Assembly: GCA_963781885.1 (NCBI GenBank)
Contig: CAWAHW010000007.1
Coordinates: 558,625-622,624 of the forward strand
Direction of reading: 5' to 3'
Length of the DNA: 64,000 nt
Source of the DNA: an uncultured Spirochaetota bacterium
Lineage (GTDB): Bacteria > Spirochaetota > Spirochaetia > SZUA-6 > Fen-1364
Under the pieces are notes generated by a model, which saw nothing but the letters and a program-made list of their open reading frames with translations, did not search any database and was not told the origin of the DNA. Below, piece by piece: positions 16,346 through 64,000 of the stretch; position 1 is the first letter of the stretch; the number at the start of each line of letters is the position of its first letter. The position numbers and the translations under genes are program-made.

Positions 16346-16426
16346 TCCCGCCTCGGAGACGCCGGCGCCGCCCCTCCGCGGCTTGCCCTTCCGCAAAGAG
16401 CGTCTCCTCCTGTAGAATCCGTACAC

Positions 16427-25079: not shown

Positions 25080-25168
25080 CAAACACCTCCTATGAATGCT
25101 ATGTAAATATTAGTATTTTGATCAGGTATAGGCAAAGGAAAAGCCATACTTGAAGGCGGGAGGAAGGC

Positions 25169-32237: not shown

Positions 32238-32444
32238 GGTGTCCCCCTGATGGGGATTGTACCCCCATTACCGGCTGAAGTGAACGGCCGCGGGGGCCGC
32301 GCGATGCACAGGCATGGGAGGCCGCTGCGATGCAGCCGAAGATCCGCGGCCCCGGGTGCTGCACCCCGAGCGGTATGCCGACGGAGGACCCTGGAAGGAC
32401 CTGCGCGGGACAAAGTGGTCGGGCTGACCGACAGCGCCTCCTTC

Positions 32445-35792: not shown

Positions 35793-35822
35793 GGTATTCC
35801 GTGCGGTTAGGTGGCATTCGTG

Positions 35823-36254: not shown

Positions 36255-36285
36255 GCCCGCACCTGCGCGCCTCGTTGCCGCGCGC

Positions 36286-37542
36286 TCATCCGTAGAACCT
36301 CGCGGCGCCCTCGAGGGCTTCCGCCAACCGATCGATCTCCGCGAAGGTGTTGTAGAAGGAGAGGCTGGCGCGCGCCGTGGCTGGCACCCCGAGCCGCTTC
36401 ATGAGCGGCTGGGCGCAGTGATGACCCGCCCGCACGGCGATGCCCTCCCGGTCCAGGAACTGGGCGACGTCGTGCGCGTGGATTGCGCCGAGCGTGAAGG
36501 AGAACACGGCGCCCCGCACGGGGGCGCTGCCGTAGACCGTGACGTCGGGCGTGGCGCGGAGCTTTTCGGCGGCATACGCGGCAAGGTCGTGCTCCCACGC
36601 GGCGATTGCGGGAAGGCCGAGTGCATGGAGGTAGTCGATGGCGGCGCTCAGCCCGACCGCACCTTCCACGTTCGGTGTGCCGGCTTCGAACTTCCAGGGA
36701 AGATCGTTCCAGGTGGAGCCTTCCAGGTGCACGGACCGTATCATCTCGCCGCCGCCCATCCACGGGGGCATCGCTTCCAGAATCTCTTCCTTCCCGTACA
36801 GCGCGCCTATGCCCATGGGGCCGTACATCTTGTGTCCCGAGAAGCAGTAGAAGTCGCAGTCGAGGTCCTGCACGTCGATGCGCATGTGCGGCACCGCCTG
36901 CGCCCCGTCCACGAGGATGAGCGCGCCGCGGTCGTGCGCGATCCGCGCAAGGGCCTTCACGTCGTTGATGGTGCCCAGCACATTGGAAACATGGGTGACG
37001 GCCACCAGGCGCGTGCGCGGATCCCAGGCGGCCGCGGCGCGCTCCAGGTCCAGGCTGCCGTCATCCTCCACGGGAAGGAAAGAGAGCTTCGCGCCGCGCC
37101 GGGCGCAGGCGAGCTGCCACGGGACGAGATTGCTGTGGTGCTCCATCACCGTGCAGAGGACCACGTCGCCGCTCTTCAGGCTGCTGTCCGCCCAGCTCGA
37201 CGCGACCAGGTTGATGGCCTCGGTTGTCCCCCGGGTGAAGACGATCTCGGCGCGCGCGCGCGCGTTGAGCAGGCGCTGCACCTTTCCCCGGCCTTCTTCA
37301 AAGGCCGCGGTGGCTTCTTCTCCCAGGGTGTGGAGCGCGCGGTGCACGTTCGCGTTGTTGTGCTCGTAGTAGACGCGCATGGCATCCAGCACGACGCGCG
37401 GCTTCTGCGACGTGGCGGCGTTGTCCAGGTAGGCGAGGGGGTGGCCGTTGACGTGCCGGTCCAGGATGGGGAAATCCCCGCGCACGTCATCGACGTTCCG
37501 GGAGCCGATCAGCTGGGTTTTGGCGTGCGCAAAGCGATCCAT
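36286..37542 (-). CDS. sufS: Cysteine desulfurase SufS
   Basis: YLDNAATSQKP, EHHSN, SGHKM, EAGTP, RAGHHCAQP. Confidence 0.96.
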   Translation of the reverse strand: MDRFAHAKTQLIGSRNVDDVRGDFPILDRHVNGHPLAYLDNAATSQKPRVVLDAMRVYYEHNNANVHRALHTLGEEATAAFEEGRGKVQRLLNARARAEIVFTRGTTEAINLVASSWADSSLKSGDVVLCTVMEHHSNLVPWQLACARRGAKLSFLPVEDDGSLDLERAAAAWDPRTRLVAVTHVSNVLGTINDVKALARIAHDRGALILVDGAQAVPHMRIDVQDLDCDFYCFSGHKMYGPMGIGALYGKEEILEAMPPWMGGGEMIRSVHLEGSTWNDLPWKFEAGTPNVEGAVGLSAAIDYLHALGLPAIAAWEHDLAAYAAEKLRATPDVTVYGSAPVRGAVFSFTLGAIHAHDVAQFLDREGIAVRAGHHCAQPLMKRLGVPATARASLSFYNTFAEIDRLAEALEGAARFYG

Positions 37543-37829
37543 ATTTCTCCGTTTTCCACTTTTACGTCCCACGTCCCGACCGGGAGTGTCGCGGGCAACC
37601 CCGTGACCTTTCCCGTGCGAAGGTTGAACCGGGATCCGTGCTTCTGACAATATACTTCTCCCGCCCAGACATCGCCCTCAGAAAGACGTGAATATTCGTG
37701 CGAGCAGATATCGTCGAGGGCAAAAACGCCCTCGTCCGTGCGAAAAAGTGCCACGAGCCGCTCTCCGACCGTGACGCCGAGGGTCGTGACCAGCTCCTTT
37801 TCCATCGCCACGCGTATCCAGCCGTCCAT
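37509..37829 (-). CDS. Rieske-type [2Fe-2S] ferredoxin
   Basis: CSH...CQKHGSRF motifs. Confidence 0.9.
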   Translation of the reverse strand: MDGWIRVAMEKELVTTLGVTVGERLVALFRTDEGVFALDDICSHEYSRLSEGDVWAGEVYCQKHGSRFNLRTGKVTGLPATLPVGTWDVKVENGEIWIALRTPKPS

Positions 37830-37835
37830 CTTTTT

Positions 37836-39080
37836 TCAGGCAGCCCTGCGAAAACGGCCGCGGATGGTCGCGAGCGTCTGGTCGCGGTAGCCTTCCGGCG
37901 CCGATCCGAGGAGGTCCTCGAAATAGCCGATCACGAGCATCTCCCGCGCGTCAAGCGTCGACAGGCCCCTGCTTTCGAGGTAGAAAAGCTCCTCGCTGGA
38001 AAGTTTCCCCGTGGTGGAGCCGTGGCTGCACTTCACGTCGTTGTTGCCGATCCGCAGGGTGGGGATGGAGTCGGAGCGCGCCGCCTCCCCGAGGATGAGA
38101 TTCCGGTTTGTGAGGTAGGCGTCGGTTCCCGACGCGCCCTCTGCCACCTCGATGAGCCCCTGGAACACCGAGCGGCCGCCCGCCGCGACGGCGCCCTTGT
38201 AATAGGCCCGGCTGGTTGCCTTGGGTGAGCGATGGTTCTGGACCGTCCGCAGGTCCATATGCTGGCCGGCGCCGCAGTAGTACACGCCGTCCAGCCGCGC
38301 ATCGGCACCTGGCCCGTCGAGCGAGCAATCCACCCGCGTCTTTGCAAGACGCGAACCGAACTCCGCATCGATGTGGTGGAGCGACGCGTCCCGTCCCACC
38401 ACGGCGCGCGCGTGCCGGACGTAGATGTCGCGCGGCCCCAGCTCCTGGACCTCGCAGTAGGTGAGACCCGCCGCGTCCGCGAGCCGCAGGTCGACCGCCG
38501 CGTTGCAGAGCAGCCCTTCACCGTCTTCCGCGCCGCGTGTACGGGTGACCACCGACGCGCGCGCGCCCTGGCCGAGAAACACCGCGACGTGCGGGGCGCT
38601 CTGGAAACCCTTGCCGGTTTCGGCGAAATCGATGAAGAACGGCTCCTTGATTTCAAGACCGGCGGGGATCCAGAGCAGCGCGCCGTGATTGAACGAGGCG
38701 AAGTGCGACACGAGGAAACGGTTGTCCGCTTCCTCGAATGCCTTCTCCCACAACCCGTGCATCGGCGCTTCCATCTCCTCCACCGCGTGATCAAGCGGCA
38801 GGAGCTTCACGCCGCTGTCGCGCAGGGCGGGGGAGAGTGCAAGCTCGGCGCAGCGCGACGACTCGAAACGGATGAATCCCGCGCTCGATCCCGCCTCCGC
38901 GTCCCGCGGGCACGCGGGCTTCGGCTGCGGGCCTGCGGCGAAGGAGTCCAATCCGAGACGGCTCACGTCGGTCCGGCGCCATTCCTCCTCTGACGTTGTC
39001 GGCCACGCCATGGCCTTGAAGCGCTCCTGCGCCTTGTCACGAAGATTTTTCATCCAGACGGGCTCGACGGCGGTCGGCAT
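37836..39080 (-). CDS. sufD: Fe-S assembly protein SufD
   Basis: EEWRRTD, DVKCSHG, LFYLESRG. Confidence 0.93.
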   Translation of the reverse strand: MPTAVEPVWMKNLRDKAQERFKAMAWPTTSEEEWRRTDVSRLGLDSFAAGPQPKPACPRDAEAGSSAGFIRFESSRCAELALSPALRDSGVKLLPLDHAVEEMEAPMHGLWEKAFEEADNRFLVSHFASFNHGALLWIPAGLEIKEPFFIDFAETGKGFQSAPHVAVFLGQGARASVVTRTRGAEDGEGLLCNAAVDLRLADAAGLTYCEVQELGPRDIYVRHARAVVGRDASLHHIDAEFGSRLAKTRVDCSLDGPGADARLDGVYYCGAGQHMDLRTVQNHRSPKATSRAYYKGAVAAGGRSVFQGLIEVAEGASGTDAYLTNRNLILGEAARSDSIPTLRIGNNDVKCSHGSTTGKLSSEELFYLESRGLSTLDAREMLVIGYFEDLLGSAPEGYRDQTLATIRGRFRRAA

Positions 39081-40513
39081 CATCCCACCGTGCCTTCCAT
39101 CTCCAGCTCGATGAGCCGGTTGAGCTCCACCGCGTATTCCATGGGGAGCTGCTTCACGAGGGGATCGAGGAAGCCGCTCACGATCATGAGGGACGCCTCC
39201 TGCTCGCTCATGCCGCGGCTCATGAGGTAGAAGAGCTGCTCCTCGCTGATGCGGCTCACGCGCGCCTCGTGCTCGATCGACACGTCGTCCGAATCGATCT
39301 CCATGTACGGGTAGGTGTTGCTGCGGGACTGCGCGTCAAGGATGAGCGCGTCGCAGACGACCCTCGAGCGCACGTCGTGCAGGCCCTCGTTCACTTTCAA
39401 GAGGCCGCGGTAGGAGGAGATGCCGCCGCCGCGGCTGATGGACTTTGCCGTGACGATGGACGAGGTGTGGCTCGCCGCGTGCACCGCCTTTGCACCAGTG
39501 TCCTGCTCCTGTCCCTTGCCGGAGAAGGCGATGGAGAGAACCTCGCCGTGGGCCCCTTCGCCGACCAGGTAAATCGACGGGTACTTCATCGTGCGCTTGG
39601 CGCCGATATTCCCGTCCACCCATTCGACCACGGCGTCCTTGTGCGCCACGGCGCGCTTGGTGACCAGGTTGTACACATCGTTGGACCAGTTCTGTATGGT
39701 GGTGTAGCGCACCCGCGCGCCCGGTAAGGCGATGATCTCCACCACGGCGCTGTGCAGCGACTCGGTGGCGTAGACGGGCGCCGTGCAGCCCTCGATGTAG
39801 TGCACGAAGCTGCCTTCATCCGCGATGATGAGGGTGCGCTCGAACTGGCCGAAGCTCTTCGCGTTGATGCGGAAGTAGGCCTGCAGCGGCACTTCCACCT
39901 TCACACCCTTGGGCACGTAGACGAAGCTTCCCCCCGACCAGACGGCGCTGTTGAGCGCCGCGAACTTGTTGTCCAGGTAGGGGATGACCGTGCCGAAGTA
40001 CTGGCGCACCAGGTCGGGATGCTCGCGCACCGCTGTCTCGGGGTCTGTGAAGATCACGCCCTGCTTGGAGAGCTCCTCCTTGATGCTGTGGTAGACCATC
40101 TCGGAGTCGTACTGTGCCCCGACACCGGCGAGGAACTTCCTCTCCGCCTCGGGGATGCCGATGCGCTCGAATGTCTCCTTGATGTTCGCCGGCACGTCCT
40201 CCCACGACCGCGACTGCTGCTCCTGCGGCCGCGCGTAGTAGTACAGGTCGTCGAAGTTCAGGTCGGAGAGGTCCGCGCCCCAGTTGGGCATGGCCTTCTT
40301 GCGGAAAGCCGCCAGGGAGCGCAGGCGGAACTGGCGCATCCACTCCGGCTCGTTCTTGCGGGCGGAGATGGCGTTGACGATATCCTCGTTCAGCCCCTTG
40401 CGGGTCTTGAAGACCGACTCGTCAGGAAAATGATACCCGTGCTGGTATTCGCCGACGAGCTCGCTGCCGGGAGCGGGGGACGACGATTCAACGACGGGAG
40501 ACTGCCGACTCAT
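39080..40513 (-). CDS. sufB: Fe-S assembly protein SufB
   Basis: [33 protein letters not shown]. Confidence 0.97.
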
Positions 40514-41296
40514 TGGCTTCCTCCTCGATTCCGTACTGTTCCTTGATCCAGTCGTAGCCGCGGCTTTCCAGGATTTCCACGAGCTCCTTGCCGCCGGAGG
40601 TCACGATCCTGCCCTTGTACATGATGTGCACGAAGTCCGGCACGATGTGGGTGAGGATACGCTGGTAATGCGTGATGATGAGCGCCCCGAAGTCGGCCCA
40701 CCGGTCGCTCCAGCGACATCCCGCAGCTTGTTCACGCCGCGTGCCACGACCTTCAACGCGTCGATGTCGAGGCCCGAGTCCGTCTCGTCCAGGATGGCAA
40801 GGGTGGGCTTCAGCATCAGCATCTGCAGCACCTCCATGCGCTTCTTCTCCCCGCCGGAAAAGCCCTGGTTGAGATAGCGGTTGATGAATGCCTGCTCCAT
40901 CTCCATGAAATCCATGTTCTCGCGCAGCTGCTTGATGTAGGCGGTGACATTCATGCCTTTGCCGTCGCTTCGCAGCTCGATGGCGCGCTTGAGGAACTTA
41001 CCCACCGTGACGCCGGCGATCTCCACGGGGTACTGGAACGCCAGGAAGACGCCGCGCAGCGCGCGTTCGCTCGTGGAAAGGGCAAGGTAGTCATCCCCGT
41101 CCAGCGTCACGCCGCCGCCGGTCACCGTGTACGCGGGATGACCCATGAGCACATTCGCCAGCGTGCTTTTCCCGGAGCCGTTTGGCCCCATGAGCGCGTG
41201 GATCTCTCCCGCGCGGATCACGAGGTCCATGCCGTCCAGGATCGGTTTCTCACCGATGGAGGCTTTCAGGCCGCTCACTCTCAACTGGTATGCCAT
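40488..41296 (-). CDS. sufC: Fe-S assembly ATPase SufC, frameshift near 40700
   Basis: [32 protein letters not shown]; the shifted frame continues [27 protein letters not shown] to TGA at 40488. Confidence 0.93.
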
Positions 41297-41318
41297 TTCA
41301 TTCCCCCTGTCGCGTGCG

Positions 41319-41639
41319 TCAAATCGGGTAGCCCAGCGCGACCCGCGCCTCTTCGCTCATCCGTTCGGGTCCCCACAGCGGGGACCACACGGTATTCGCC
41401 TTCACGTCGACGAGGCCGAAGGCGTCCCGCACGGTCTCGATGATGTCGCGGCGGATGATGTCCTCCGCCGGGCACCCGGGATAGGTGAGGGTGAAGTCGA
41501 CCTCAATGCCTTTTTCCTGCACGTCGATGCGGTACACGAGCCCCAGGTCGACGATGCTGAAAGCCAGCTCCGGGTCCTCCACGTTGCGCAGAACGTCCAG
41601 GACTTCCTCGCGAGATACCATCTCTTTGTTCTCTCTCAT
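41319..41639 (-). CDS. sufT: DUF59 Fe-S assembly factor (SufT/PaaD-like)
   Basis: VEDPEL..SIVDLGLVY, TLTYPGCP, WGPERMSEEAR. Confidence 0.92.
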   Translation of the reverse strand: MRENKEMVSREEVLDVLRNVEDPELAFSIVDLGLVYRIDVQEKGIEVDFTLTYPGCPAEDIIRRDIIETVRDAFGLVDVKANTVWSPLWGPERMSEEARVALGYPI

Positions 41640-41649
41640 ATAAGTTGAC

Positions 41650-41674
41650 AATGCTGACTAAATTAGTCAAGATT
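41650..41674. promoter_or_regulatory. IscR/Rrf2 type-1-like operator AATGCTGACTAAATTAGTCAAGATT over divergent promoters
   Basis: TGACTAA-A-TTAGTCA dyad; the central 19 bp fit SYYGACTRWWWYAGTCRRS; TTGACA (+, 41645) and TTGACT (-) -35-like boxes. Confidence 0.75.
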
Positions 41675-42903: not shown

Positions 42904-45900
42904 CTAGAACAGCTCCGCGGCCGCCTTCACGCCTTCCAGGTCGATCTTCCCGCTTGTCACGACGGGCATCGCTGTCGGATATGACCGGCCATTGATCCAC
43001 AGCTCTTTTGCGAGCGGGATGAACAGGTCCTGCCTGCCGGGCTTCATGCCCCACACGATCCGGCGCGTACCGTTCTCCGATTCCTCCACGCCGACGTCCA
43101 GGAGGAGGTCCGGCTTTTTCTGCGCGGGACGCTGCTTTCCGATGAGGTAGCCCGCGTTGCGCGTGTCCCACAGCAGGTTGATCCGCAGCTTGTCGCGATT
43201 CTCCAGAAGCGCTTTCAGCGTGCCCGCGTCCGCGTGCGCGGGATTCACCCAGACCTCGACGGGAAGGCCGGTGCCCAGCGCCTCCGCGATCGCCGTGCTC
43301 AGGTCCGGGAGAACACGGGAGCCAGCACGCCGCACGGTCTCGTCGTCATGACCCGTCACCCAGAGCTCCGCCGCGCCCTTGCGCTTCCTGCGATACGCTT
43401 CCGTGAAAACCACATTGTTCGTCTCCGCGATTTCTCCCACCAGGAGGATCAGCGCCTTGTCTTCATCCGTGCAGCCCGCGGGTTTTGCAGCAAGCTGCGC
43501 CCATCCTGGGTCCAGCGCTTCCAGCCCGGCGGCGACCACGGGGATTCCTCTGCGCGCCGCCGCCTCGATGAACGTGTCGATGGCTTCCGCGCAGAGCGAC
43601 GGGGAGATCCGCATCAACGGATTCTTCGCTTTTGAGAGAAGCTTCCGCGCCGTCTCGCGCGCCGCGGCAAGATCCACCGCCGCGGGGGCCGGATCGTTCA
43701 GGAAGTCGTGGCCGAACCTTCCCTTCTTGCAGAGCTTGCCGAAATTCGGCGCATCGTAGCGCTCCGTGACGCGTGTGAAAAGCGTGCCATGCCAGCGGTA
43801 TTCGATGCCGCAGCCTACCGAGCAGCGGCCGCAGGTGCCGTCCACCGTCTTTTCAAGCAGCGGCACGTTTTTCTTTGCCGGAAGCTTTTCCGTGAGCGCG
43901 CCCACCGGGCATGCGGAAACGCATTGGCCGCAGGAGATGCAGGTCGTGTCCTCTCCGAAAGGCACGCCGAATGACGGGGCGACCACCGAGGAGAATCCCC
44001 GGTAGATATAGCCGAACACGCCGATGCCCTGCACCTCGAGGCAGATCCTGATGCAACGTCCGCAGAGCACGCATTTTGACGGGTCCCTGCTGATGAACGG
44101 GTGCGAGTCGTCGATAGGGTGGCGCGCGATCTCGCCCAGATAGCGCGTGGCTATCGCATCGTATTCGGTTGCGTGCGACTTCAGCGCGCACTCTTTCACG
44201 TCCAGGCAGCCGCACTCGAGGCAGCGTTCGGCCTCGGCGCGGGCCGCGGCGACCGGGAGCGTGGATTCTATTTCCATGAAGCCCTTTGCGCGCGGCCCCG
44301 CCGCCATGACGGCAGGTTTCGCACGCGGTGCGCGCGGGGTGGCGGCGAAGTCCTCCGCGGTCGGCGTCTTGAAATCCGCCTTTTTGCTCAGGAACTCTTT
44401 TGGCCTTTGGTAGGTCCTGCCCTCCAGGTATGCAAGAGCCGCGCGCGCCGCGTGCTTGCCGCCGGCAATCGCGCGTATGGCGATGTCCGTGCCGGTGAGG
44501 AGGTCTCCCGCCGCGAAGACGCCCGCAACGTCGGTGCGACCCGTGTCCGTGTCCGCATTCAGGTTGCCCTTGTCATCCACGAGGCCGGGTGTGCCGGAGA
44601 GCAGCTTCGTGTCCGAGTACTGCCCGACGGCGGAGATGATCGTATCAACGGGGACGGCATACTCCGATCCGTCCACGGGCACGGGCCTTCGCCGTCCGGA
44701 GGCGTCCGGTTCTCCCAGCGCCATGCGCAGCAGGGTGAGGGTCTTCAGGCTTCCGCCTTCTGCCAGGATCGAGACGGGGGCCGCGAGGTACTGGATGTCG
44801 ATGCCTTCCTCCATGGCCTCTTCGATCTCCGCATCGGATGCCGGCATCTCCTCGCGCGTGCGCCGGTAGTACATCGTCACCTTCGACGCGCCGCGCCGCA
44901 GGGAACAGCGGGCGGCGTCCAGCGCGGTGTTGCCGCCGCCGATGATGGCGACGATCTCGCCGACCTTCACGGGCAGCCCCGCGTTCACGTCGCGCAGGAA
45001 GTCGATGCCGGAAAGCACCGCGGGATGGTCCTCGCCGGGGATGCGCAAGGCCCGACCCTTCCACGCGCCAATGGCGAGAATCACGGCGTCATTTTCCGCG
45101 CGCAGTTTCTCAAGGGTCACGTCCTTGCCCAGCCGCACGCCCGTGCGGAGGGTCGCGCCGAGGCTCAGCATTTCAGCGATCGCCCGGTCCAGGACCGCGG
45201 GCGGCAGGCGGTAGTCGGGGATGCCGTAGCGCAGCATGCCGCCGGCCTTCTCCATGCCCTCAAGGAGCGTGACGTCCACGCCCTTCTCCGAGAGGTACCA
45301 TGCGGCGGAAAGCCCCGCGGGTCCGGCGCCGATCACGGCGATCTTCTTTCCGATGCGCGCGGGCGTGGGACGCTGCTTCATGCCGCCAGCCGCCGCTTCC
45401 GCGTCGGCCACGAATCGCTTGATGCCGTTGATGTTGAGCGGCTCTTCCACGAGGCTGCGTCTGCATTCCTGCTCGCACGGCCGGGGACAGATGCGGCCGA
45501 TGACCGCCGGCATGGGATTGTCGCGTCGGATGAGCTCCACGGCCTCGGCGTCCTTCCCGTTCGCCACCAGGCCCAGATAGCCCTGGATGTCGATGTTGGA
45601 GGGGCAGGTGAGCGTGCAGGGGGCCTTGCAGTCCCCGTAGTGATTCGAAAGGAGCAGGTCCAGCGCCATGCGCCGCGCCGCGTCGACGTCAGGGGCGGTT
45701 GTGGTAATGACCATGCCCGGAGTCACCTTCGTGCTGCAGCTGGGGACGAAGCCCTTTGCCTTTTCCACCTTGACCAGGCAGACCCAGCAGGATGCGTACG
45801 GCTCGAGCCTCTTGTCGTTGCAGAGCGTCGGGATGCGGATGCCCTGGCTCTCCGCCGCTTCGAGTATCGTCGTGCCCGGCGCCACGGTGAGCTTCTTCCC

Positions 45901-45927
45901 GTCCAGGGTGATCTCGATCTGGTCCAT
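42904..45927 (-). CDS. StnC/NsoC-like large subunit: NuoG-type 2Fe-2S + GltD-type FAD/NADP domain + 2x4Fe-4S + degenerate molybdopterin-like C-terminus
   Basis: IPTLC..CWVC..C; GRICPRPCEQEC; GAGPAG; GGGNTALD; RRT; CVLCGRC; CISCGQC; CGRCSVGC..LCKKGRFG; no H-cluster motifs. Confidence 0.88.
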   Translation of the reverse strand: MDQIEITLDGKKLTVAPGTTILEAAESQGIRIPTLCNDKRLEPYASCWVCLVKVEKAKGFVPSCSTKVTPGMVITTTAPDVDAARRMALDLLLSNHYGDCKAPCTLTCPSNIDIQGYLGLVANGKDAEAVELIRRDNPMPAVIGRICPRPCEQECRRSLVEEPLNINGIKRFVADAEAAAGGMKQRPTPARIGKKIAVIGAGPAGLSAAWYLSEKGVDVTLLEGMEKAGGMLRYGIPDYRLPPAVLDRAIAEMLSLGATLRTGVRLGKDVTLEKLRAENDAVILAIGAWKGRALRIPGEDHPAVLSGIDFLRDVNAGLPVKVGEIVAIIGGGNTALDAARCSLRRGASKVTMYYRRTREEMPASDAEIEEAMEEGIDIQYLAAPVSILAEGGSLKTLTLLRMALGEPDASGRRRPVPVDGSEYAVPVDTIISAVGQYSDTKLLSGTPGLVDDKGNLNADTDTGRTDVAGVFAAGDLLTGTDIAIRAIAGGKHAARAALAYLEGRTYQRPKEFLSKKADFKTPTAEDFAATPRAPRAKPAVMAAGPRAKGFMEIESTLPVAAARAEAERCLECGCLDVKECALKSHATEYDAIATRYLGEIARHPIDDSHPFISRDPSKCVLCGRCIRICLEVQGIGVFGYIYRGFSSVVAPSFGVPFGEDTTCISCGQCVSACPVGALTEKLPAKKNVPLLEKTVDGTCGRCSVGCGIEYRWHGTLFTRVTERYDAPNFGKLCKKGRFGHDFLNDPAPAAVDLAAARETARKLLSKAKNPLMRISPSLCAEAIDTFIEAAARRGIPVVAAGLEALDPGWAQLAAKPAGCTDEDKALILLVGEIAETNNVVFTEAYRRKRKGAAELWVTGHDDETVRRAGSRVLPDLSTAIAEALGTGLPVEVWVNPAHADAGTLKALLENRDKLRINLLWDTRNAGYLIGKQRPAQKKPDLLLDVGVEESENGTRRIVWGMKPGRQDLFIPLAKELWINGRSYPTAMPVVTSGKIDLEGVKAAAELF

Positions 45928-45929
45928 GT

Positions 45930-47774
45930 TCAGTCCTTCCCCCGGCGCCGGCGCCAATTCCACGGGGTACCGCGGCGTCGGCCTTCTCGTGCGCAAAGGC
46001 CTGCGCTCCCGTGGTGATCTCTATCGCGTTGAACCGGCACGCCTCGAAGCAGAGACCGCACCGGATGCAAGTGTCCTGGTCGATGAGGTGCGGCTTCTTC
46101 CGCTCGCCGTGCGCGGCCTTCGTGGGACAGACGCGCGCGCAGAGCATGCAGCCCGTGCACGCTCTCCGCGACCACGTTGTAGGTGATGAGCGCCTTGCAC
46201 TTCTTTGCCGGGCAGCGCTTGTTCCTGATGTGCTCGTCGTATTCCGCGCGGAAGTAGCGCAGAGTGGTGAGCACGGGGTTGGGCGCGGTCTGCCCGAGCG
46301 CGCAGAGCGAGCTGATCCGGATCTTGCCCGCCAGCTCCTCCAGCTCCGCAATGTCCTTCTCTTCTCCCCTGCCTTCCGTGATGCGCGTGAGGATCTCCAG
46401 CATCCGCTTCGTTCCGATCCTGCAGAAGGTGCATTTGCCGCAGGATTCGCTCTGGATGAAGGTGAGGAAGTAGCGCGCGACGTCGACCATGCAGGTCGAT
46501 TCGTCCATGACGACCATGCCGCCGGACCCCATGATCGCGCCCGTTGCCGTGAGGGAATCGTAGTCCACCAGCACGTCGGCGAGGCTTTCCGGCACGCACC
46601 CGCCGGAGGGACCGCCCATCTGGACAGCCTTGAACTTCTTGTCGCCCATGATGCCGCCGCCGATGTCGAAGATCACCTCGCGGAGGCTGATGCCCATGGG
46701 CACCTCGATCATGCCGCCGCGCTTGATCTTGCCCGCAAGGGCGAAGACCTTTGTCCCCCTGCTTTTTTCCGTGCCGATCTTCGCGTACTCCAGCCCGCCC
46801 ATGCGGATGATCGAGGGCACATTCGCGAATGTCTCCACGTTGTTGATATTGGAAGGAGAACCCCACAGACCGCGCTCCGCGGGAAACGGGGGGCGCAGGC
46901 GCGGCATGCCGCGCTTGCCTTCTATCGAACCCATGAGCGCCGTTTCTTCACCGCAGACGAATGCGCCGGCGCCTTCCTTTATGTGGAGGCTGAACGAAAA
47001 ATCGGTTCCCAGTATCCGGTTGCCCAGCAGGTTCTTTTCTTCCATCTGGCGCAGCGCGATCTGGAGCCTCTTGATGGCGAGCGGGTATTCCGCGCGCACG
47101 TACACGTAGCCCTCGTCGGACCCGATGGCAAAGGCGCCGATCAGCATGCCTTCCAGGACCGCGTGCGGGTCCCCTTCCAGCACCGAGCGGTCCATGAAGG
47201 CGCCCGGGTCCCCCTCGTCCGCGTTGCAGATGATGTACTTCTTGCCGGTCGTGGACTTCGCTTTGCGCGCGAATGTCCATTTCATGCCGGTGGGGAATCC
47301 CGCGCCACCGCGGCCGCGCAGACCCGACGCCGAAACCTGCTCGATGACCGCCTCAGGGCTCATGCCGGTGAGCACCTTCCGCAGCGCCACGTAGCCGTCG
47401 TGGGCGATGTACTGGTCGATGGATTCGGGATCGATGACGCCGCAGTTGGCAAGAACGATACGCTTCTGTCGCGCCAGGTACGGGTAGTCGGCGGGGATGA
47501 GCATCGCGGTGACCGGTGTCCCTGCAAGGAGCCCTTCCACGATCGCGTGCGCCTTCGCCTCGTCCACGTTGCCGTAGAGGAGCTTTGTCCCGTCGGCCTG
47601 GCGTATCTCCACGAGCGGCTCGGCGTGGCAGGCGCCGATGCATCCCGTGGCGACAACGGCGTAGGGCAGGGCCCGCGCCGCAACGTCCTTCTGGAGAGTG
47701 TCGAAAACCACCCGCGCGCCCGCGGCGATGCCGCAGGAGCTCATGCCCACCGCCACTTCCGGCTGGCCGCTCAT
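45930..47774 (-). CDS. NuoF/HydB-like FMN-NAD subunit (StnB-like); C-terminal 2x[4Fe-4S] domain out of frame after about 46165
   Basis: GLRGRGGAGFPTG, NADEGDPG, FVCGEETAL, ESCGKCTFC; CTGCMLCARVCP..CIRCGLCFEAC in the shifted frame. Confidence 0.92.
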   Translation of the reverse strand: MSGQPEVAVGMSSCGIAAGARVVFDTLQKDVAARALPYAVVATGCIGACHAEPLVEIRQADGTKLLYGNVDEAKAHAIVEGLLAGTPVTAMLIPADYPYLARQKRIVLANCGVIDPESIDQYIAHDGYVALRKVLTGMSPEAVIEQVSASGLRGRGGAGFPTGMKWTFARKAKSTTGKKYIICNADEGDPGAFMDRSVLEGDPHAVLEGMLIGAFAIGSDEGYVYVRAEYPLAIKRLQIALRQMEEKNLLGNRILGTDFSFSLHIKEGAGAFVCGEETALMGSIEGKRGMPRLRPPFPAERGLWGSPSNINNVETFANVPSIIRMGGLEYAKIGTEKSRGTKVFALAGKIKRGGMIEVPMGISLREVIFDIGGGIMGDKKFKAVQMGGPSGGCVPESLADVLVDYDSLTATGAIMGSGGMVVMDESTCMVDVARYFLTFIQSESCGKCTFCRIGTKRMLEILTRITEGRGEEKDIAELEELAGKIRISSLCALGQTAPNPVLTTLRYFRAEYDEHIRNKRCPAKKCKALITYNVVAESVHGLHALRARLSHEGRARRAEEAAPHRPGHLHPVRSLLRGVPVQRDRDHHGSAGLCAREGRRRGTPWNWRRRRGKD

Positions 47775-48229
47775 GACTTGCCTCCCACCGCCGCGACGAT
47801 CTTGCCCAGCTTGTCACCGGTGAGCCGGCCGTAGACCTCGCCGTCGATCATCACCACGGGCGCGAGCGAGCAGCACCCCAGGCAGGCCACCCTCTCAACC
47901 GTGAACTCCCCGTCCTTCGTCGTATTCCCCGGTGCAACGCCGAGCTTCTGCTCCACCACCGTGTCCAGCGAATCGGCTCCCTGCACGTGGCAGGCGGTGC
48001 CGTGACAGACCTTCATGACGTGCTTTCCCATGGGCGTGAAACGGAACTGTGCATAGAACGTGGCCACGCCGTAGATCTCCGCCGCCGCCATGCCCGTGAC
48101 CCGGGCGATATTGCGCATCGCCTCTTGCGGAAGGTATCCGTAGATGTCCTGGGTTTTCTGCAGAAGAGGGATGACGTTCCCCTTCACCCCCTTCCACTCG
48201 CTGAGAAGGGCCTGAAACGCCTGTTCCAT
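47771..48229 (-). CDS. NuoE/HydC-like thioredoxin-type [2Fe-2S] subunit (StnA-like)
   Basis: GVATFY, CHGTAC, CLGCC; AAGGAG RBS. Confidence 0.94.
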   Translation of the reverse strand: MEQAFQALLSEWKGVKGNVIPLLQKTQDIYGYLPQEAMRNIARVTGMAAAEIYGVATFYAQFRFTPMGKHVMKVCHGTACHVQGADSLDTVVEQKLGVAPGNTTKDGEFTVERVACLGCCSLAPVVMIDGEVYGRLTGDKLGKIVAAVGGKS

Positions 48230-48295
48230 GTGATCTCCTTCGGCGGTCACGTGCCGGTGCCAGAGTCAATTTTGATTCGAACGGGAGTTGTCTGG

Positions 48296-56814: not shown

Positions 56815-56881
56815 CGGACGACGCACGGGGTCGTCCGCGTCACCTCACGGGAAGCCGCAGCGATGCGGCTTCCACTCTTTT
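56815..56881 (+). terminator. Double hairpin after the SBP gene (partial terminator or mRNA-stabilising stems)
   Basis: CGGACGAC/GTCGTCCG stem and GGAAGCCGCA-GCGA-TGCGGCTTCC stem followed by ACTCTTTT. Confidence 0.7.
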
Positions 56882-56895
56882 GTCAGGGAACGAAC

Positions 56896-59231
56896 ATGCA
56901 GGAATCGACAATCGACGCGCGAAACGCGGGGATCCGGGTGCGCCCCGCGCTCCCCTCCCTGCAGGGATCGAATCCTCGCGGGGACACCATCGCCTTCACC
57001 AATTCCTCCCTCACCTTCAACGGAAAACCATGGCTTGCTGTCATGGGGGAGATCCACTACGCGCGGCTCCGCAGGGAAACATGGAGGGACGAGCTCCTGA
57101 AGATGAAGGCGGGCGGCATCGACATCGCGTCCACCTACGTCTTCTGGATCCATCACGAAGAGGAGCGCGGAGTCTTCGACTGGACGGGCGACCGTGACCT
57201 GCGGAGCTTCGTCCAGGAATGCGGGCACGCGGGACTGTCCGCGGTGGTGCGTGTCGGCCCCTTCTGTCACGGGGAAGTACGCAACGGCGGCCTGCCCGAC
57301 TGGCTGTATGGAAGTCCCTTTGCCCTCCGGTCGCAATGACGAACGCTACCTGCGACTGGCGCGCGTCCTGTACGGCGAGATCGCGCGGCAGCTGGACGGG
57401 CTCTGGTTCGGGGAGGGCGGACCGATCATCGGGATCCAGCTTGAGAACGAGCTCATGCACGCGGGGGCTCCGTGGGAAACCACTCCACGACTGTGCCAGG
57501 AGTGGGTGAGCGCCGGCACGGGCGGTGCGGATCACCTGCGCATGCTGCTGCGGATCGCGGCGGAGGCCGGGTTCAAGGCCCCCCTCTACACGAGCACCGC
57601 GTGGGGAGGCGCCCCCGTGCTCGAAGGCGACGTCCTCCCGCTGTATGGAGGCTACGCCTATTGCCCCTGGAACGTCACGGAATCCACGCCCGTGCATGCA
57701 CCGACCCGCGAATACATCTTCCGCAATTTCCGCGCCCCCGCCATCCGGGACGCGCAGTTCGACCCCGCATACGACCCGTCGGCGTATCCGTTCGCCTGCT
57801 GTGAGATGGGCGGCGGGATGCAGTCATGGTACCGCTACCGGTTCGTCGTGCCCCCCGCGAGCGTCGAGGCTCTGGCGGTCATGAAGCTGGCCGGAGGTTG
57901 CGCGGTGCTCGGCTACTACATGTACCACGGGGGAACGAATCCCGTCGGACGGCGCGGCTTCCTGAACGAGCACGTCGTGCCCCGCATCTCCTATGACTAC
58001 CAGGCTCCTCTTGGCGAGTCCGGCCAGGTGCGGGAATCGTGGGCACGATTGCGCCGCGTGCACCTGTTTTTCCGGCATTTCCAGGAGGAGCTGGCGGCTG
58101 GCGGGAACGGCGCTGCCGGCGGGCGCGGAGGAGCTGCAGCCCGCCGACACAAGGACCGTGCGATGCGCGGCCCGTGCCAATGGCGATGCCGGATTCCTCT
58201 TCCTCAACAATTTCCAGGACCACGCTGTCATGCCGAATCACACGGGCGTCTCCGTGAGGATCGAGCTGCCGGGCGGACCGGTGCGCATCCCCCATGCGGG
58301 AGGATTCACCCTGAAGACCGACGCCTCGGTCATCCTGCCCTTCGGCCTTTCCATCGGCGGAGCGCACATGGTCTCCGCCACCGTGCAGCCATTGGCACGC
58401 CTGGATGTCGACGGGGTCGAGCACCTGTTCTTCTTCGCGCGTGAAGGCATCGATCCGGAGCTCGTCTTTGCGTCGCGAGGTCTGAGCGTCGAGCTGTCGG
58501 ACTGCAGCCGCGAAAGCGCCGGCGGGCTCGCCGTGCTTCGCCCGAACCCGGGCCTTGGCTCCTCGATCTCCATTCGTGGCGCATCGGGGAGCGCCGTCAT
58601 CCACATCCTCACCGAGGAGCAGTCGCTCTGCTTTTCCATCCTGCGTCTCGGCGGCCGTCTTCGGGCGATCCTGCTCCGCGGGGAGGTGTTCGAGGATGAG
58701 GGCGCGCTCAGGCTGCGCGTGCCCTGCGCGGATCCAGGACAGGTGGAATTGTACGCGTTCCCGGCAGTGGAAAGGCCGCTGACGGCAACGGGCGCCCGGA
58801 TGGTTGCGTCGGAGGTGGATGGGTTTTCCCGATGCACGCTCGCCTATGCCGGGAGGCGTGTCCCTCTCACGGTGACACAGCCCTCTGCCGGGGACGCCGA
58901 GATTGCATTCCCCGTCGGCCTGACCGAAGGGCTCGTGGAGGTTCTTCTCTGCGTCCGCTATGAGGGCGACGTCGGGAACGCCTTCATCGACGGCGCGCTC
59001 GTGTCTGACGATTTCGCCAACGGCCAGGCCTGGGAAATCGGGCTTGCCCGATTGGGCGCCGATCTCGAGCGCAAGGGAATGTATATCCACGTGACGCCGC
59101 GGCGCGAGGGCGCTGTCATCATCAGGGAGTCCGCCATGGCGCTCCAGCAGGAGCTGCAGGGGCGCGAGGTTGCCGCGATCCACAGTATCGAGGCGCTTCC
59201 CATCCGGGAGATCGTCGTCACGGCAGTCTGA
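56896..59231 (+). CDS. GH35 beta-galactosidase, frameshifted near 57334 and 58100
   Basis: GEIHYAR, YVFWIHHEE, GPFCHGE..GGLPDW, IQLENE, CEMGGG, GYYMYHGGTNP, SYDYQAPLGE. Confidence 0.9.
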
Positions 59232-59345
59232 AGCTCGCCTCGCTCCGCGCACTTCCGCGGAGCCGGGGTATCCTGCAGGCCGCTCCTCATCTGTGGACAA
59301 CAACGCCTTTTCGGCGCCGTTCGGCAAATGGGAATCGGTCCGGCG

Positions 59346-59922
59346 TCAGATCGTCAATCTTTCTTTTCCCGGCCCGCGTCGTCCGACGCGGAGCTCTCCG
59401 GTTCGCTCCAGCGCGCGGATGGCGGTTTCCACGTCCTCCGTCTCCCAATCCCGGAGGACACCGTATCCCTGGAGGCAGTCGTGGAATGCGCGCACGGCGT
59501 GCGGCCCGGGCGCGGCGCAGAGAATGCGGGCGGCCTCGGAAACGGTGAAACGTCGCCGGTAGCGGCGGACGAAGGCGCGCGATTGCCGCGCACCCGGCGG
59601 GGTACCGCGGCACGGTTCCATCGCAGACGTCGCAACCCCCGCAGGCGACCCCCGGCTGGCCGATGAGGGAAAGCAGCTCGTTGCGCCGGCACGAGCCAAC
59701 GCGCGCGGCGTACCCGCGCATGCGCTCGAAGCAACGCCGTCCCACCTCGTCAGTGATGCGCGCGGCAAGCTCCGAATCATCGTTTCCCGAGAGCAGAATG
59801 GCACGGCTGGGCCTGCCGTCCCGCCCCGCGCGTCCCGACTCCTGCAGGTACGCCTCTATTGAGGGAGGCACGTGCGCGTGGATGACCAGCCGGATGTCCG
59901 GCTTGTCGACGCCCATGCCGTA
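59346..59922 (-). pseudogene. recQ: 3' fragment of a RecQ-family helicase interrupted by an integrated element (additional indel near 59577)
   Basis: YGMGVDKPDIRLVIH..YLQESGRAGRDG, Zn motif CRR..CGGCDVC, RQC-like tail; in-frame TAA TAA 7 codons upstream of YGMG. Confidence 0.88.
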
Positions 59923-59930
59923 AGGATATG

Positions 59931-59959
59931 TTGACTTTAAACATTATTAATACTATCTT
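59931..59959 (+). promoter_or_regulatory. Sigma70 promoter of the recombinase, probably producing a leaderless mRNA
   Basis: TTGACT-N17-TATCTT; the GTG start at 59966 is 7 nt downstream and has no SD. Confidence 0.6.
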
Positions 59960-59965
59960 CGTACC

Positions 59966-61718
59966 GTGGAGATACAGCGAGTTGCTATGATCTACGCTCG
60001 AGTATCCGATCTGGAAGCGCACAAGGGTGAACGGGACGAAAAGCAGGTCAAGCGCGGGATCGCTTATGCCACCGACCACAAGCTGCCCTACCATATCTTT
60101 CGGCCTGCCAAAAACGAATCTGCAAGTGGTGACGACATGGAAGATCGGCCTTCGCTCCAGACTTGCCTAGATGCAATCCAGGAAGAGGTGCGGGGTGGTA
60201 AAGCTCCAGTGATGTGGGTAAGCAAGCTCGATCGCATATCGCGCCATGGTTATACAAGGGCTTGGGCCTATAGAATCCTCCAACGCAACAAGGTTCCGAT
60301 CGTCACAGGCGAGGGGGAGACCTACGATCTCAATAACCCATCCTCGAAGCTCCAAGCCGACCTAAAAGGCGATTTCGCAGAGTATGAGGCTTCCATAATC
60401 AAGGAGCGCTTGGGAGGGGAGGCACGCGCACTCAAGGCAGAAGGGGGAATGCCCTAGGACGAGCTTTGTACGGCTATAAACAAGGCCCGAAACGAGCCAA
60501 GGGCCGATTTCTTGTCACGACGTGGGAGCCCGAGCCGCGCGAATTGCACACTATCCGTAAGATGTATGACTGGCTCCTCAAGGGGTGTTCAATCAACGAA
60601 GTGATGCGGCGAGTCATCAAACTCGGGCTCATGGACCAAAAGCAGCTCGATAGCAAGGGCACCAAAATCCGCCGACTTTTTCAGCAGATTGCCTATACAG
60701 GCAACGTTTGGGCGGACAGGAAAGGGGGGGCGATAGTGCCAAGCAAGCACTATACCGAGAAGGTTGTCAGCCTTGAGGAATGGCATCGAGTGCAAAGCAT
60801 TCTCAAAGGGCGGAGGGTCGATCGGCAGGTGCGTTTCAGCGCTCACTACTGCTCAGGTCTCGTCAAGTGTGCACTATGTGGACAGTTCTACCATTACTAT
60901 GAAACAAGTGTCGACGGCGGACGCTACAAGTATTACAAGCACCAGGAGGCACCTTGGAAACCAAAGTGCCAAGGGCTGCCCAAGAACCTGCCTGTAGACT
61001 ACCTTCACTCGCTGGCCGAGATCACTTCCTCTACAGCATGATGTCTCGATTCGACATCACACTGATTTCCGAAGAGCTTCGGAGCAAGCTCACTTCACAG
61101 GAGGGAGAGATCGCGGAGTCAATTTCAGGGCTTGAGGAACAGCTCGCCGAGAATATCAAGAGGAAGAACAATCTTGTGGCGGTAATCGAGAAGGGCGGTG
61201 ACCCTATTTCTCTGGCCACACGCCTGAATGAGCTGACGATGCAGAGACACGAGATTGAGCAACTCATGATTGATCGAAGGAACGAGCTGATCGACAAGGA
61301 CGAAGAGACCAAGACGCTTGCGGCACGTACCTCCATCAGGGCGGTGGCAGGTTGGTTCGCTTCGAGTGCCCCCGAGAAGCGGGCACGTCTTCGCGACCTC
61401 ATGACGGCGCGGATGAAGATGGGTGAGATAGTCATCGTTACACGCGCGAATAGGCAATTCACATTCCCTGCAAAGAGGCCAGCAGAGACACCCCCTGAAT
61501 TGGTGGAAATACTGTCGGCGGCGCGTGATCTCGCACATCGCTCAACATCAGCCGACGCGCTCGTCGCGGAGATCCTTCTGGATCGAAGCTTGGAGCAACG
61601 TTTCGAAGCAAGGTTCCGAGTCATGGAAGCGCCAGTGCCAATCGACCTGATGGGCTTCCAGACCTATCCTGTTGCCCCAAAGTATTTCGATCTGAGGCCT
61701 CGCGAGGCGACGCAATGA
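59966..61718 (+). CDS. Large serine recombinase (integrase), split by indels near 60445 and 61025
   Basis: IYARVS catalytic Ser, SKLDRISR, AEYEASIIKER, ALYGY, YTG, VVSLEEWHRVQ, SGLVKCALCG zinc ribbon, coiled coil; about 580 aa when joined. Confidence 0.9.
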
Positions 61719-61906
61719 TGGATGCGAGGCAACCTGAAAACCGATGGCGGTTCGGAGAAGAACATTGCAGAAAGCGCTTAGAGCTTATCAATAGAGAAAT
61801 GGCCAACCTTTGTGAGAACTCCGTTATAGGTCGCTCGTTGAAAATCAATACTTATAGACTGCTACTTGGTACCCAGCACGAGACGGAATTGCTCCCCATG
61901 ATCTGA
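61715..61906 (+). CDS. Small hypothetical protein overlapping the recombinase stop
   Basis: ATGA overlap with the recombinase stop codon; no recognisable motif. Confidence 0.35.
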   Translation: MMDARQPENRWRFGEEHCRKRLELINREMANLCENSVIGRSLKINTYRLLLGTQHETELLPMI

Positions 61907-62149
61907 CATTCTCCAAGAATTAGTTGGTCCAGCTATTGGAGGACCTTTATTGAAGACTCAATTCAATAGGGGGGCTCCTTTCTTTTTTTTGGCGCTCGCA
62001 GTGGCGCCAAAGGACTGGATGGAGCGCGCATCGATATGCGCGCATAGGAGGATGGGTTGGATTGAACGCATCGAGTCGGCAGCGATCGCGGCTGCAGAGC
62101 ATTCATTCCCAATTGTGCCGAGCCAATTCGGCCTGATAGGAGGAGAAGC

Positions 62150-62482
62150 ATGGCAAGATATGATCTACGAGACGGATTCACCGCCTGGCGGTTTATGGAT
62201 TGGGTGGGCAGAGTCATGGCGGACTTCCAGAACGAGATGGAGTTCGTGAATCCAATCGCCGCGCAGCGATTTACGGCTTTGGAAGAAAGCCTCCTGCGAC
62301 TGCTCACAGACCTCGACGACCTTTGGATGTCGCTTGGAGAAGGGAGTGTGGACGCCACACCATCCACGCAAGCGGCCGACCACACGGGAAACGCAACCAA
62401 TGATGCGCCGTATCTCTTGCCCCCTGGCTGGCCACTCGACTATCCCCGAGGCCAAGGAGACGAGGAAGAAAGTGGCCCGTAG
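62150..62482 (+). CDS. Acidic hypothetical protein
   Basis: Strong AGGAGG RBS; 110-aa ORF with helical N-terminal half. Confidence 0.55.
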   Translation: MARYDLRDGFTAWRFMDWVGRVMADFQNEMEFVNPIAAQRFTALEESLLRLLTDLDDLWMSLGEGSVDATPSTQAADHTGNATNDAPYLLPPGWPLDYPRGQGDEEESGP

Positions 62483-62805
62483 AGCAGGAACTTTTCGCTG
62501 ATGCACCCTGGCGCTTGGAGCAGCCCAGAATAGATGGCCCAGAAAGGAGGGGTCAAAGATCATCGCCAACTGATTCCGAAGATGACTGTCGTCGGGACAG
62601 CAGGAGTCCGTATGGACCCCTGAAAATACGGGCGACGAGGACCGAAAGGATTGGTACCCCACAAGGTCCCCGCCGCCAGAAACGAGACTAACATGTTCAT
62701 AGTATGCCATAGCGCCGTCCGTCGGCAAGGCGACCGCGGCGCCGATGAACAGCACCGCCTTCGTGAGTGCGTCGCTCGTTGTCGCATCGCGACGATGAGG
62801 GTGCC

Positions 62806-64000
62806 ATGAGCGAAGTCGCTCTCGCGTTCCACGAAGAGCCCGATCGCAAGACACGCGATGTCACGCCCAAGTCCTCGAGGCGGCCAGCGACGCCAGGAAA
62901 GCGGAGGGCAGTGCGGCGAAAAGCATCGCGCGGTGCCCATGCGACATCCCCCGAGAGCGCGCGACCCGCAAGGAGCCGTGCCAAAGAAACTGCCACGCCA
63001 CCATCCGCGCTGCGCTACGAAAGCCTCGCGGTTCGCTACATCAAGAACTCGTTACCGTCCAACCCGCAAGACCTGACTCGATACATCATCATATCAAGTC
63101 ACCACTTGCGTGCGAAAATGGAGCAGCTCAAAGCACTCGCACGAATCGAAATGGGCAGCAAGATGTACTGGCAGACCCTGGCAGAAGGGCAGGTCTGTGG
63201 GGACGCTTCCTCTTCGCCCTTGAGTTGCTCGGCAACATCCTCGAGGAAGCCGAACTATCGAAAGGAGGTCGACCGAGCAAAACCAGTCCAAGCCAAGGAC
63301 GGGTTTTGACTTTGGAGCAAATGGGAATCCCTCGCCAACTGTCTTCGGATTGCCAACGCATCGCGAGGCATCCGTTCGAGCTTCGCACAACGATTATAGA
63401 TGCACGCCGCAAAGGTGATATTCCGACCAAGTCGTCGCTATTGTGGCTGATCGGTCTTCAGGAGAGGTTTCAGCCCGTTCCCTTCCCGCCCCTGCCTGAT
63501 GACTTGTTCGACGCCATTCTCGGAGACCCCGCTTGGCCATACGACTTCGCCACTAGGGGTAGGTCGATCGAAAGACACTACCCGACGGTGTTGTCCGATC
63601 GGATGAAGGATCTGGGTGAAAAGGTTCGCCGCCTCGCAGCTCGGAATTGCAGGCTATACCTCTGCGTTCCACCTCCGAAGCTATTCGATGCAGAGCCATT
63701 CATCGAGGCTTGTGGCTTCTCGTACAGGTCAAACTGGATATGGATCAAGGGAGGACGGAACCTCAAATGCAACGGCAACGTCGACCATGAACACATCCTC
63801 ATCTGCGGAAGGGGTGCGTCGGCTCCGAAGGTGCACGACACGGTATACAGAACATTAGCAGCGTGATCTACTCGCCAAAGGGAAACACTCCGAAAAACCA
63901 ACGGAGCTGTACGAGCGCTTCAAACTGCTACATCCAAATGGCCGATATCTGGATTTGTTCGGCGGCAAGCCGCGGGAGCGCTGGACGAGGTGGTGCCACG
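62806..64000 (+). CDS. Phage-type MT-A70 family N6-adenine methyltransferase with N-terminal extension; several indels; truncated by the window end
   Basis: GGRPSK..TLEQMGIPRQLSSDCQRIA linker; FDAILGDPAW, RHYPT, GFSYRSNWIWIK, HEHILICGRG, HSEKP, YLDLFG. Confidence 0.82.

Follow-up and report, generated by a model that had tools for sequence, protein, structure and literature searches.

Why does a RecQ-family helicase gene of an uncultured Spirochaetota bacterium stop at one of its own catalytic motifs, beside a recombinase gene that reads away from it? The question arises near the end of the stretch of DNA analysed here, hereafter the window, which comprises 64,000 nucleotides of assembly GCA_963781885.1 (contig CAWAHW010000007.1, positions 558,625 to 622,624). 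The genome amounts to 4.64 Mb in 7 contigs; the window is the last 64 kb of one of them, C7, and position 64000 is the contig end. The original prediction, made from the letters alone, proposed that an element carrying a large serine recombinase (LSR) had integrated into recQ at helicase motif V. We confirmed that a foreign segment with an LSR gene splits a RecQ-family gene at this motif. The interruption is probably a real, recent and lineage-specific insertion mediated by the LSR, which would inactivate the gene, a paralog of canonical recQ, for as long as the element stays integrated. The locus is defined by two features:

59346..59922, minus strand: 3' part of a RecQ-family helicase gene ('recQ-B'), about 191 codons and the natural stop, from the Tyr codon of motif V (YGMGVDKPD) onward, recognised by Pfam matches and orthologs
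59987..61718, plus strand: LSR gene, about 577 codons, full length but in three frames owing to two 1-base breaks, recognised by Pfam, the PHROG family phrog_95 and the homolog P0001

The minus strand translates over 59287..59916 as MGVDKPDIRLVIHAHVPPSIEAYLQESGRAGRDG. This helicase fragment matches positions 76-110 of 110 of Pfam Helicase_C as well as RecQ_Zn_bind, and covers positions 286-384 of the NCBIfam model recQ_fam. The RQC domain is carried by a second minus-strand frame (59346..59804), and a domain search of the fragment retrieved no HRDC domain. In tblastn searches with three intact orthologs, similarity began exactly at YGMG, at window position 59922, and remained colinear to the C-termini of the orthologs, with a single frame switch near 59590-59615. 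Beyond YGMG the window translates as ...LKSTYP, in unrelated, AT-rich DNA, and the guanine-plus-cytosine (GC) content changes sharply at the junction, with 53-60% from 59923 on compared to about 65% in the host. The starting point of the tblastn matches therefore bears out the earlier description, in which helicase similarity was lost just before YGMG and foreign DNA followed. The recombinase had been placed about 45 bp from the junction, and a GTG codon at 59966, an alternative start, lies 44 bp away; the ATG at 59987, which aligns with Met1 of the closest homolog, P0001, is at a distance of 65 bp. Likewise, the element had been said to provide no replacement 5' end for the gene. This holds for the 4.08 kb of the element that are visible before the contig ends, as no recQ-like 5' end was found within 59923-64000. 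Scans of the 58-64 kb region for Rfam families, tRNA genes and repeats returned nothing relevant.

If the gene has been interrupted, its 5' half should lie elsewhere in the genome, and the original prediction had proposed looking for it. A genome search with a RecQ-family model retrieved four pieces, all located at or near contig ends. One of them is the helicase 5' half, which occupies C3:1-894 on the minus strand (model hit C3:4-840(-), positions 4-284) and is the counterpart of the 3' half on C7 (C7:618271-618567(-), positions 279-384). The reverse-complemented C3 finishes with ...GVLCSTSA at its last base, and the window goes on as YGMGVDKPD. In 11 intact orthologs, ...AT(S/C)A is followed by YG(M/L)GVDKPD with nothing intervening and, judged by these, the two halves join without a residue gained or lost. 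The break thus falls between the Ala and Tyr codons (...SA/YGMG), within the (A)YGMG codons where the bacterial attachment site, attB, had been predicted. Since the 5' half lies at the very first base of C3, the pattern in the window is not a product of chance. Lack of a matching 5' half had been named in the original prediction as a ground for refuting it, and that half exists. Synteny extends the match: in three relatives (G023, G014 and G021) the 9 kb that precede the helicase ortholog are colinear with the C3 end, and the ortholog itself continues into the window fragment. In another relative, G006, the match is limited to the helicase gene itself, and downstream synteny with the neighbouring GH35 gene is not conserved among relatives. 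A copy of the helicase 3' half borne by the element was rejected for this genome (G000), which has only one 3' half for this paralog.

The exact position of the crossover was approached by comparing the C3 end, the window and the 11 orthologs. Read rightwards, the junction and the rebuilt gene coincide once the TA of the Tyr codon is reached, and they differ at the base before it, which delimits the following candidate:

59921..59922, minus strand: candidate crossover dinucleotide TA, the first two bases of the Tyr codon and the leftmost identical position of the junction and the rebuilt gene

This TA, the leftmost possible crossover dinucleotide, is the likely core. Serine recombinases cut and rejoin DNA at a 2-bp core with no duplication or loss, and so the two halves of a gene split in this manner abut seamlessly. 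A mobile element, possibly a prophage, was then probably inserted by its own LSR into the coding sequence of the RecQ paralog, between the Ala and Tyr codons of motif V and likely at a TA core. In the integrated state the paralog would be split and not made, and canonical RecQ would remain; excision, if it occurs, would restore the gene exactly. The LSR reads outward 65 bp from the junction, and an integrase gene next to its attachment site is the usual layout. Around the insertion site, the 11 orthologs share with G000 19-23 of the 25 bases on the 3' side and 12-20 of the 25 on the 5' side. The far end of the element was not located, as none of the remaining contig ends has DNA that matches it or that continues the methylase gene. 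The element is single copy in the genome bin. Because the other junction was not assembled, attB can be rebuilt, while attR and the attachment site of the element, attP, cannot. Of the integrase and attachment-site pair put forward by the original prediction, the attB part has accordingly been obtained, and attP is not derivable from one junction.

The gene beside the junction has the architecture of an LSR. Its first piece (59966-60457) matches Resolvase (PF00239) over positions 1-143 of 145 (E 1.4e-18), the second (60466-61041) matches Recombinase (PF07508) over positions 2-102 of 102 (E 1.3e-8; 35.4 bits vs a cut-off of 21.1), and the third (60954-61718) is the C-terminal part. The match to Zn_ribbon_recom (PF13408) is weak, with 19.5 bits, below the cut-off of 25.3, and four Cys residues are invariant among the window LSR, P0001 and a second homolog, P0003. 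The catalytic motif YARVS is aligned to YCRVS of P0001. The three pieces match phrog_95 ('integrase') colinearly at positions 90-238, 246-402 and 452-583 of 651, the last with an E value of 0.001, and align to residues 4-154, 158-350 and 351-580 of P0001 (593 amino acids). Given this colinearity with P0001, the LSR is of full length, its only defects being two frame breaks of 1 base each, at about 60445-60465 (in a run of five G) and about 61010-61020. The nearest solved structure is that of the SPbeta integrase YokA/SprA (PDB 9dxh and others), which is matched by the catalytic domain only (E 6.4e-5); the DNA-binding piece had no PDB match.

Relatives of this recombinase are scarce. A search of 1.84 billion representatives with the DNA-binding piece retrieved 126 proteins at E<=1e-3, and only three at E<1e-30, namely the LSR itself, P0001 (59% identity) and P0003 (42%). 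In a search of 120 relatives, only LSRs of 26-34% identity turned up. A word-index search with the LSR gave one match, P0001, whose contig (L009) begins 24 bp upstream of the gene and contains no attachment region. A sample of 400 genomes from the phylum contained no relative, and tblastn against 50,697 phage and 72,556 plasmid records gave no match. One LSR locus was retrieved from genome contigs (22% identity) and seven from viral contigs (22-28%). In sequence terms, the recombinase belongs to a very sparse, isolated clade. The genome also encodes a second, unrelated LSR (C6:186300-188200, minus strand; locus L044, 6348-8171), which has one frame break and lies at the edge of an island of 46-51% GC. 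It directly adjoins a gene for a Ser/Thr protein kinase, in which the Pkinase match extends no further than profile position 198 of 263.

Which member of the RecQ family has been split? The target is a short RecQ-family paralog of about 490-500 amino acids and not canonical recQ. An intact ortholog contains DEAD, Helicase_C, RecQ Zn-binding and partial RQC domains and no HRDC. Its score exceeds the cut-off of the family model TIGR00614 (293.6 bits vs 219.8) and falls short of that of the RecQ equivalog TIGR01389 (333.9 bits vs 640.2). The two halves in this genome cover positions 4-284 and 279/286-384 of TIGR00614. The target thus resembles bacterial RecQ in its DEAD/Helicase_C core, its RecQ Zn-binding domain and its partial RQC, and differs from it by the absence of HRDC. 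Short RecQ paralogs exist in other bacteria, RecS of Bacillus subtilis being an example. This one is widespread in the order, its 5' half having been matched in 38 of 41 genomes and its 3' half in 71 of 92. A canonical RecQ, with both RQC and HRDC, is also encoded in the genome, by a gene shared between contigs C5 and C4. The element, therefore, disrupts an accessory RecQ paralog, and canonical RecQ remains. The 'recQ' of the original prediction is right as to the family but not as to the canonical gene, given the failure of TIGR01389 and the lack of HRDC. Its idea of an inactivated repair helicase was correct in that a RecQ-family gene is split and overstated in that canonical RecQ, with its RQC and HRDC domains, is retained.

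The canonical gene is itself divided between two contig starts, C5:1-479 on the minus strand and C4:1-1375 on the plus strand (loci L003 and L001). The corresponding model hits are C5:3-437(-), covering positions 2-148, and C4:2-910(+), covering 150-469, with the domains in the order DEAD, Helicase_C, Zn-binding, RQC and HRDC. At the seam the protein reads ...HEFRP followed by DYRSLG..., without overlap, gap or foreign DNA. In total, 4 of the 14 contig ends lie inside the two RecQ-family genes, which by our own estimate has a chance of roughly 1e-5. A second insertion that was not assembled, or a graph branch, could account for the break between C5 and C4; the element described here explains only the break between C3 and C7. 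Targeting of canonical recQ by the same LSR at the C5/C4 seam was considered and dropped, the flanks of the two sites having no evident similarity when both were read by eye, with no computation.

To what extent is the insertion site used elsewhere? Two orphan helicase 3' halves exist among 92 genomes of the order, the one in the window and another in G009:C33. The other matches to the 3' half that we examined were uninterrupted genes, cuts at contig ends, or frame-broken copies with the 5' half adjacent. G009:C33 is a 7.7-kb contig in which the helicase sequence opens with MGVDKPD, a point 6 nt downstream of where it is broken in the window, and directly abuts an outward-reading open reading frame (ORF) that matches positions 418-564 of 651 of phrog_95 (E 1e-5). 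LSR similarity in this ORF sets in at the final zinc-ribbon Cys, and its neighbour is a DDE transposase. The ORF is a truncated LSR, most simply left by a deletion across an old junction. The helicase piece on this contig shares 84.8% identity with the G001 gene, against only 70% with the copy of G009 itself, which indicates that the contig comes from another lineage of the genus. A third genome offers a related case: the 48-kb contig G016:C4 breaks off 7 nt beyond the insertion site, and its bin contains no 3' half to pair with it. The contig is 93.3% identical to the intact gene of that genome and is thus a strain variant. Together, these contigs suggest that motif V DNA is a recurrent landing site for LSR elements in the genus, the G016 case being circumstantial. 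A bolder version holds that motif V is a dedicated site reused by diverse LSR elements, that filled and empty sites coexist and cause the contig breaks in the three assemblies, that the helicase is switched on and off, and that the C5/C4 seam could be the trace of a second element; we consider this combination quite unlikely.

The broken frames bear on the age of the insertion and on the reliability of the assembly. They include those of the gene at the end of the contig:

62767..64000, plus strand: MT-A70-type DNA methyltransferase region, cut by the contig end, with a frame break at about 63860 and probably a second at about 63250

The last 6.7 kb of C7 contain at least six frame breaks, two in the GH35 gene, one in the helicase, two in the LSR and at least one in the methylase. 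All the broken pieces remain open frames, with no nonsense codons or larger deletions and, apart from the break in the G run of the LSR, the breaks lie in short runs only. Of the 42 large ORFs in the 56 kb before this stretch, 38 have Pfam matches, most of them over the full length, and only two places appear to be split; rpoB is intact, as are the genes at the C3 end in comparison with G023. We think it quite likely that the breaks reflect a poor consensus and not decay, the C7 tip presumably having thin read support. The GH35 gene, which is beta-galactosidase-like, lies beside the helicase remnant (window 56836-59225, plus strand) in three frames, with breaks near 57320-57336 and 58093-58107, and is otherwise colinear with orthologs of about 800 amino acids.

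We compared the divergence of the two gene halves as a proxy for the time since they were separated. The ratio of 3'-half to 5'-half identity against the 11 orthologs was 0.94. The reference value was 0.92 +/- 0.04, from intact orthologs taken in pairs (48 of 55 pairs, those of comparable divergence). Detachment has, thus, left no excess divergence in the 3' half. The insertion looks recent and specific to this lineage. The recombinase gene is essentially complete in length, and so is each half of the helicase gene. The opposite view would be that the insertion is old and fixed, with the LSR, the methylase and the helicase 3' half being true pseudogenes, the element a decaying remnant and the paralog permanently lost. 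The assembled breaks fit this view (two in the LSR, one in the helicase 3' part, at least one in the methylase), as do the broken frame of the second LSR on C6 and the decayed counterpart in G009:C33, in which the LSR is reduced to its last third and adjoins a DDE transposase. However, none of the pieces has nonsense codons or larger deletions, and the breaks in the host GH35 gene are of the same type, so that consensus quality is a better explanation than decay of the element. Nor is the 3' half additionally diverged, and the LSR is colinear end to end with P0001. An old and fixed insertion is, on this evidence, unlikely.

The same terminal stretch raises the question of an assembly artefact. 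On that reading the genome would have an intact gene, with C3 joined directly to C7, and the final 4 kb of C7 would be a tip, chimeric or built from minority reads, that was wrongly attached to the helicase 3' part. About one frame break per kb is found in the terminal stretch vs few in the preceding 56 kb, and C3 stops precisely where agreement between C7 and the intact gene would set in. Moreover, the seamless split of canonical recQ between C5 and C4, with nothing inserted, indicates that this assembly can break inside intact genes. A random chimera, however, would hardly be expected to join seamlessly, at a TA and 65 bp from an outward-reading integrase gene. The independent contig G009:C33, from another genome, also has a helicase 3' half abutting an LSR gene, and the shift in GC content falls sharply at the junction. 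An artefact of this type is very unlikely.

In the remainder of the visible element, the following features lie upstream and downstream of the recombinase and precede the methyltransferase region:

59923..59986, plus strand: AT-rich arm between the junction and the recombinase start, defined from the sequence
61715..61906, plus strand: 63-codon ORF whose ATG overlaps the recombinase stop (ATGA), with no Pfam or PHROG match
61950..62482, plus strand: two overlapping ORFs of 99 and 110 amino acids with no recognisable family in Pfam or PHROG, the longer one also lacking a usable match in the Atlas

The arm contains a sigma-70-like site, TTGACT-17-TATCTT, at 59931-59959. One such promoter-like site was found vs 1.0 expected by chance, which leaves its position as the one suggestive feature. 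An exact 24-mer of the arm was not found in viral contigs. The 63-codon ORF is, by its position, a candidate for an accessory or directionality factor. A complex prediction of its product with the C-terminal part of the LSR gave a score of 0.00 and carries no weight either way. No family of recombination directionality factors (RDFs) was recognisable with Pfam or PHROG in the visible 4 kb. The methyltransferase matches phrog_359 (E 1.9e-11) and, weakly, Pfam MT-A70 (E 0.17), and the nearest Atlas clusters are MT-A70 enzymes, mostly viral, with scores of 0.95-0.96.

Could the element then act as a switch, the toggling by excision that the original prediction had offered as one option? In this scenario it would excise under some condition, with the help of a directionality factor, and restore the helicase, which would alternate between off and on much like spsM with SPbeta or mutL with SpyCIM1, and the mixed states would explain the contig breaks. 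The seamless abutment means that excision would restore the frame, and both halves are well preserved. In addition, C3 ends at the break without element DNA, and the G016:C4 variant breaks at the same motif while the main copy of that genome is intact, which is the pattern expected of filled and empty sites. The one public run found (X1, share 0.06) yielded three short contigs of 99-100% identity, covering only 61166-61663 of the LSR, and a 42-nt piece from a relative over part of recQ; within this coverage, which does not reach the junction, there is no evidence for an empty site or a circle junction. The visible 4 kb contain no recognisable RDF, and the arrangement is rare and not conserved among the 92 genomes of the order. 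Furthermore, loss of an accessory paralog may simply be tolerated, and the contig breaks have other possible causes. We regard regulated switching as distinctly improbable.

We thus return to a recent insertion mediated by the LSR as the probable explanation, against which several observations weigh. A single junction (59922/59923) has been assembled, and C3 stops exactly at the break without any element DNA, whereas C7 stops arbitrarily inside the methylase; this asymmetry would also fit a graph branch in a mixed population or a minority-read tip. The junction falls in the terminal 6.7 kb of C7, where errors are dense and host DNA (GH35 and the recQ 3' part) is included, so that the poor consensus proposed above to account for the frame breaks also weakens the junction. 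Neither the junction nor the frameshift sites are covered by public reads in the one run found. As assembled, the two frame breaks leave the recombinase without a single open gene. The rebuilt attB has no significant dyad symmetry (best 11/20, a value reached by 8.9% of shuffles). With regard to recurrence, the LSR fragment of G009:C33 is only marginally similar to the window LSR (23% identity, E 0.007) and is not significantly similar to P0001 or P0003. Lastly, recQ-like flanks were present at 0 of 18 distant LSR loci, all with about 30% identity or less except the P0001 contig (L009), which has no flank; such relatives are too distant to count against conservation of the target.

Other observations concern the genome at large. 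Dozens of repeats of about 110 bp, with a spacing of about 1 kb, occur in low-GC DNA of this genome (C6:1-68000, C5:300000-334167, C4:792000-808799 and C1:1-3000). An integron integrase gene lies beside them at C6:69485-70420 (TIGR02249, 400.8 bits vs a cut-off of 265), and a second copy is found at C5:114967-115890 (316.9 bits). The repeats look like a very large chromosomal integron cassette array, which would also account for several contig ends. In the window, possible frame breaks in host genes were noted at 15548-17834 and 25154-26667, with an aminotransferase ORF that matches only profile positions 178-313 of 361, and a DUF5939 match (16-152 of 281) followed by an adenylate/guanylate cyclase domain in another frame. 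The regions 31050-41657 and 42907-48265, both on the minus strand, encode a 2-oxoacid dehydrogenase E1/E2 cluster, a complete SUF Fe-S cluster and an NADH-dependent multi-domain oxidoreductase set, all of them ordinary host content.

Serine integrases that split genes are already well known. The recombinase of the skin element is SpoIVCA, A118-type Listeria prophages reside in comK, and precise excision reconstitutes the gene. The skin element itself is described in sigK (PMC5025042). The locus studied here is similar to these in that a serine-recombinase element lies inside a coding gene. The skin and comK arrangements, in contrast, are conserved within species and tied to a cell programme, while the present one was found in 2 of 92 genomes and affects an accessory paralog. 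In Bacillus subtilis, SPbeta, whose integrase is SprA (YokA), splits spsM (PMC5499854). Here too a large serine integrase is encoded at the edge of a gene-interrupting element and both gene halves are kept. The similarity to SprA is, however, very distant; SPbeta has the RDF SprB and a developmentally timed excision, its target is a sporulation gene and not a helicase motif, and one junction is available in our case.

The nearest parallel in terms of possible consequence is SpyCIM1, which is integrated at the 5' end of mutL in Streptococcus pyogenes, where it blocks transcription and has been shown experimentally to excise with growth phase (PMC4689407 and PMC3430984). In both cases a mobile element occupies a gene of DNA repair or genome stability, and the integration state could set the phenotype. 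Unlike SpyCIM1, the element described here lies mid-gene at a catalytic motif, encodes a serine recombinase, leaves canonical RecQ in place and is known from sequence alone. With skin, SPbeta, the comK prophages and SpyCIM1 it shares a split gene with both halves retained, which precise excision would restore. A search of the literature outside subscription journals found nothing relevant combining recQ with a serine integrase, attB or a prophage, and no helicase catalytic motif as a landing site. The new aspects are, then, the target, which is the helicase catalytic motif of a RecQ paralog, the isolated clade of the recombinase, and the hint of recurrence.

An attB located in DNA that is strongly conserved across the genus would explain how elements of this type can move between species. 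Given the very sparse clade to which it belongs, the LSR would provide, once attP is known, a truly orthogonal integrase and attachment-site pair. If excision proves dynamic, this locus would be the second example, after SpyCIM1 in mutL, of a mobile element gating a genome-stability function.

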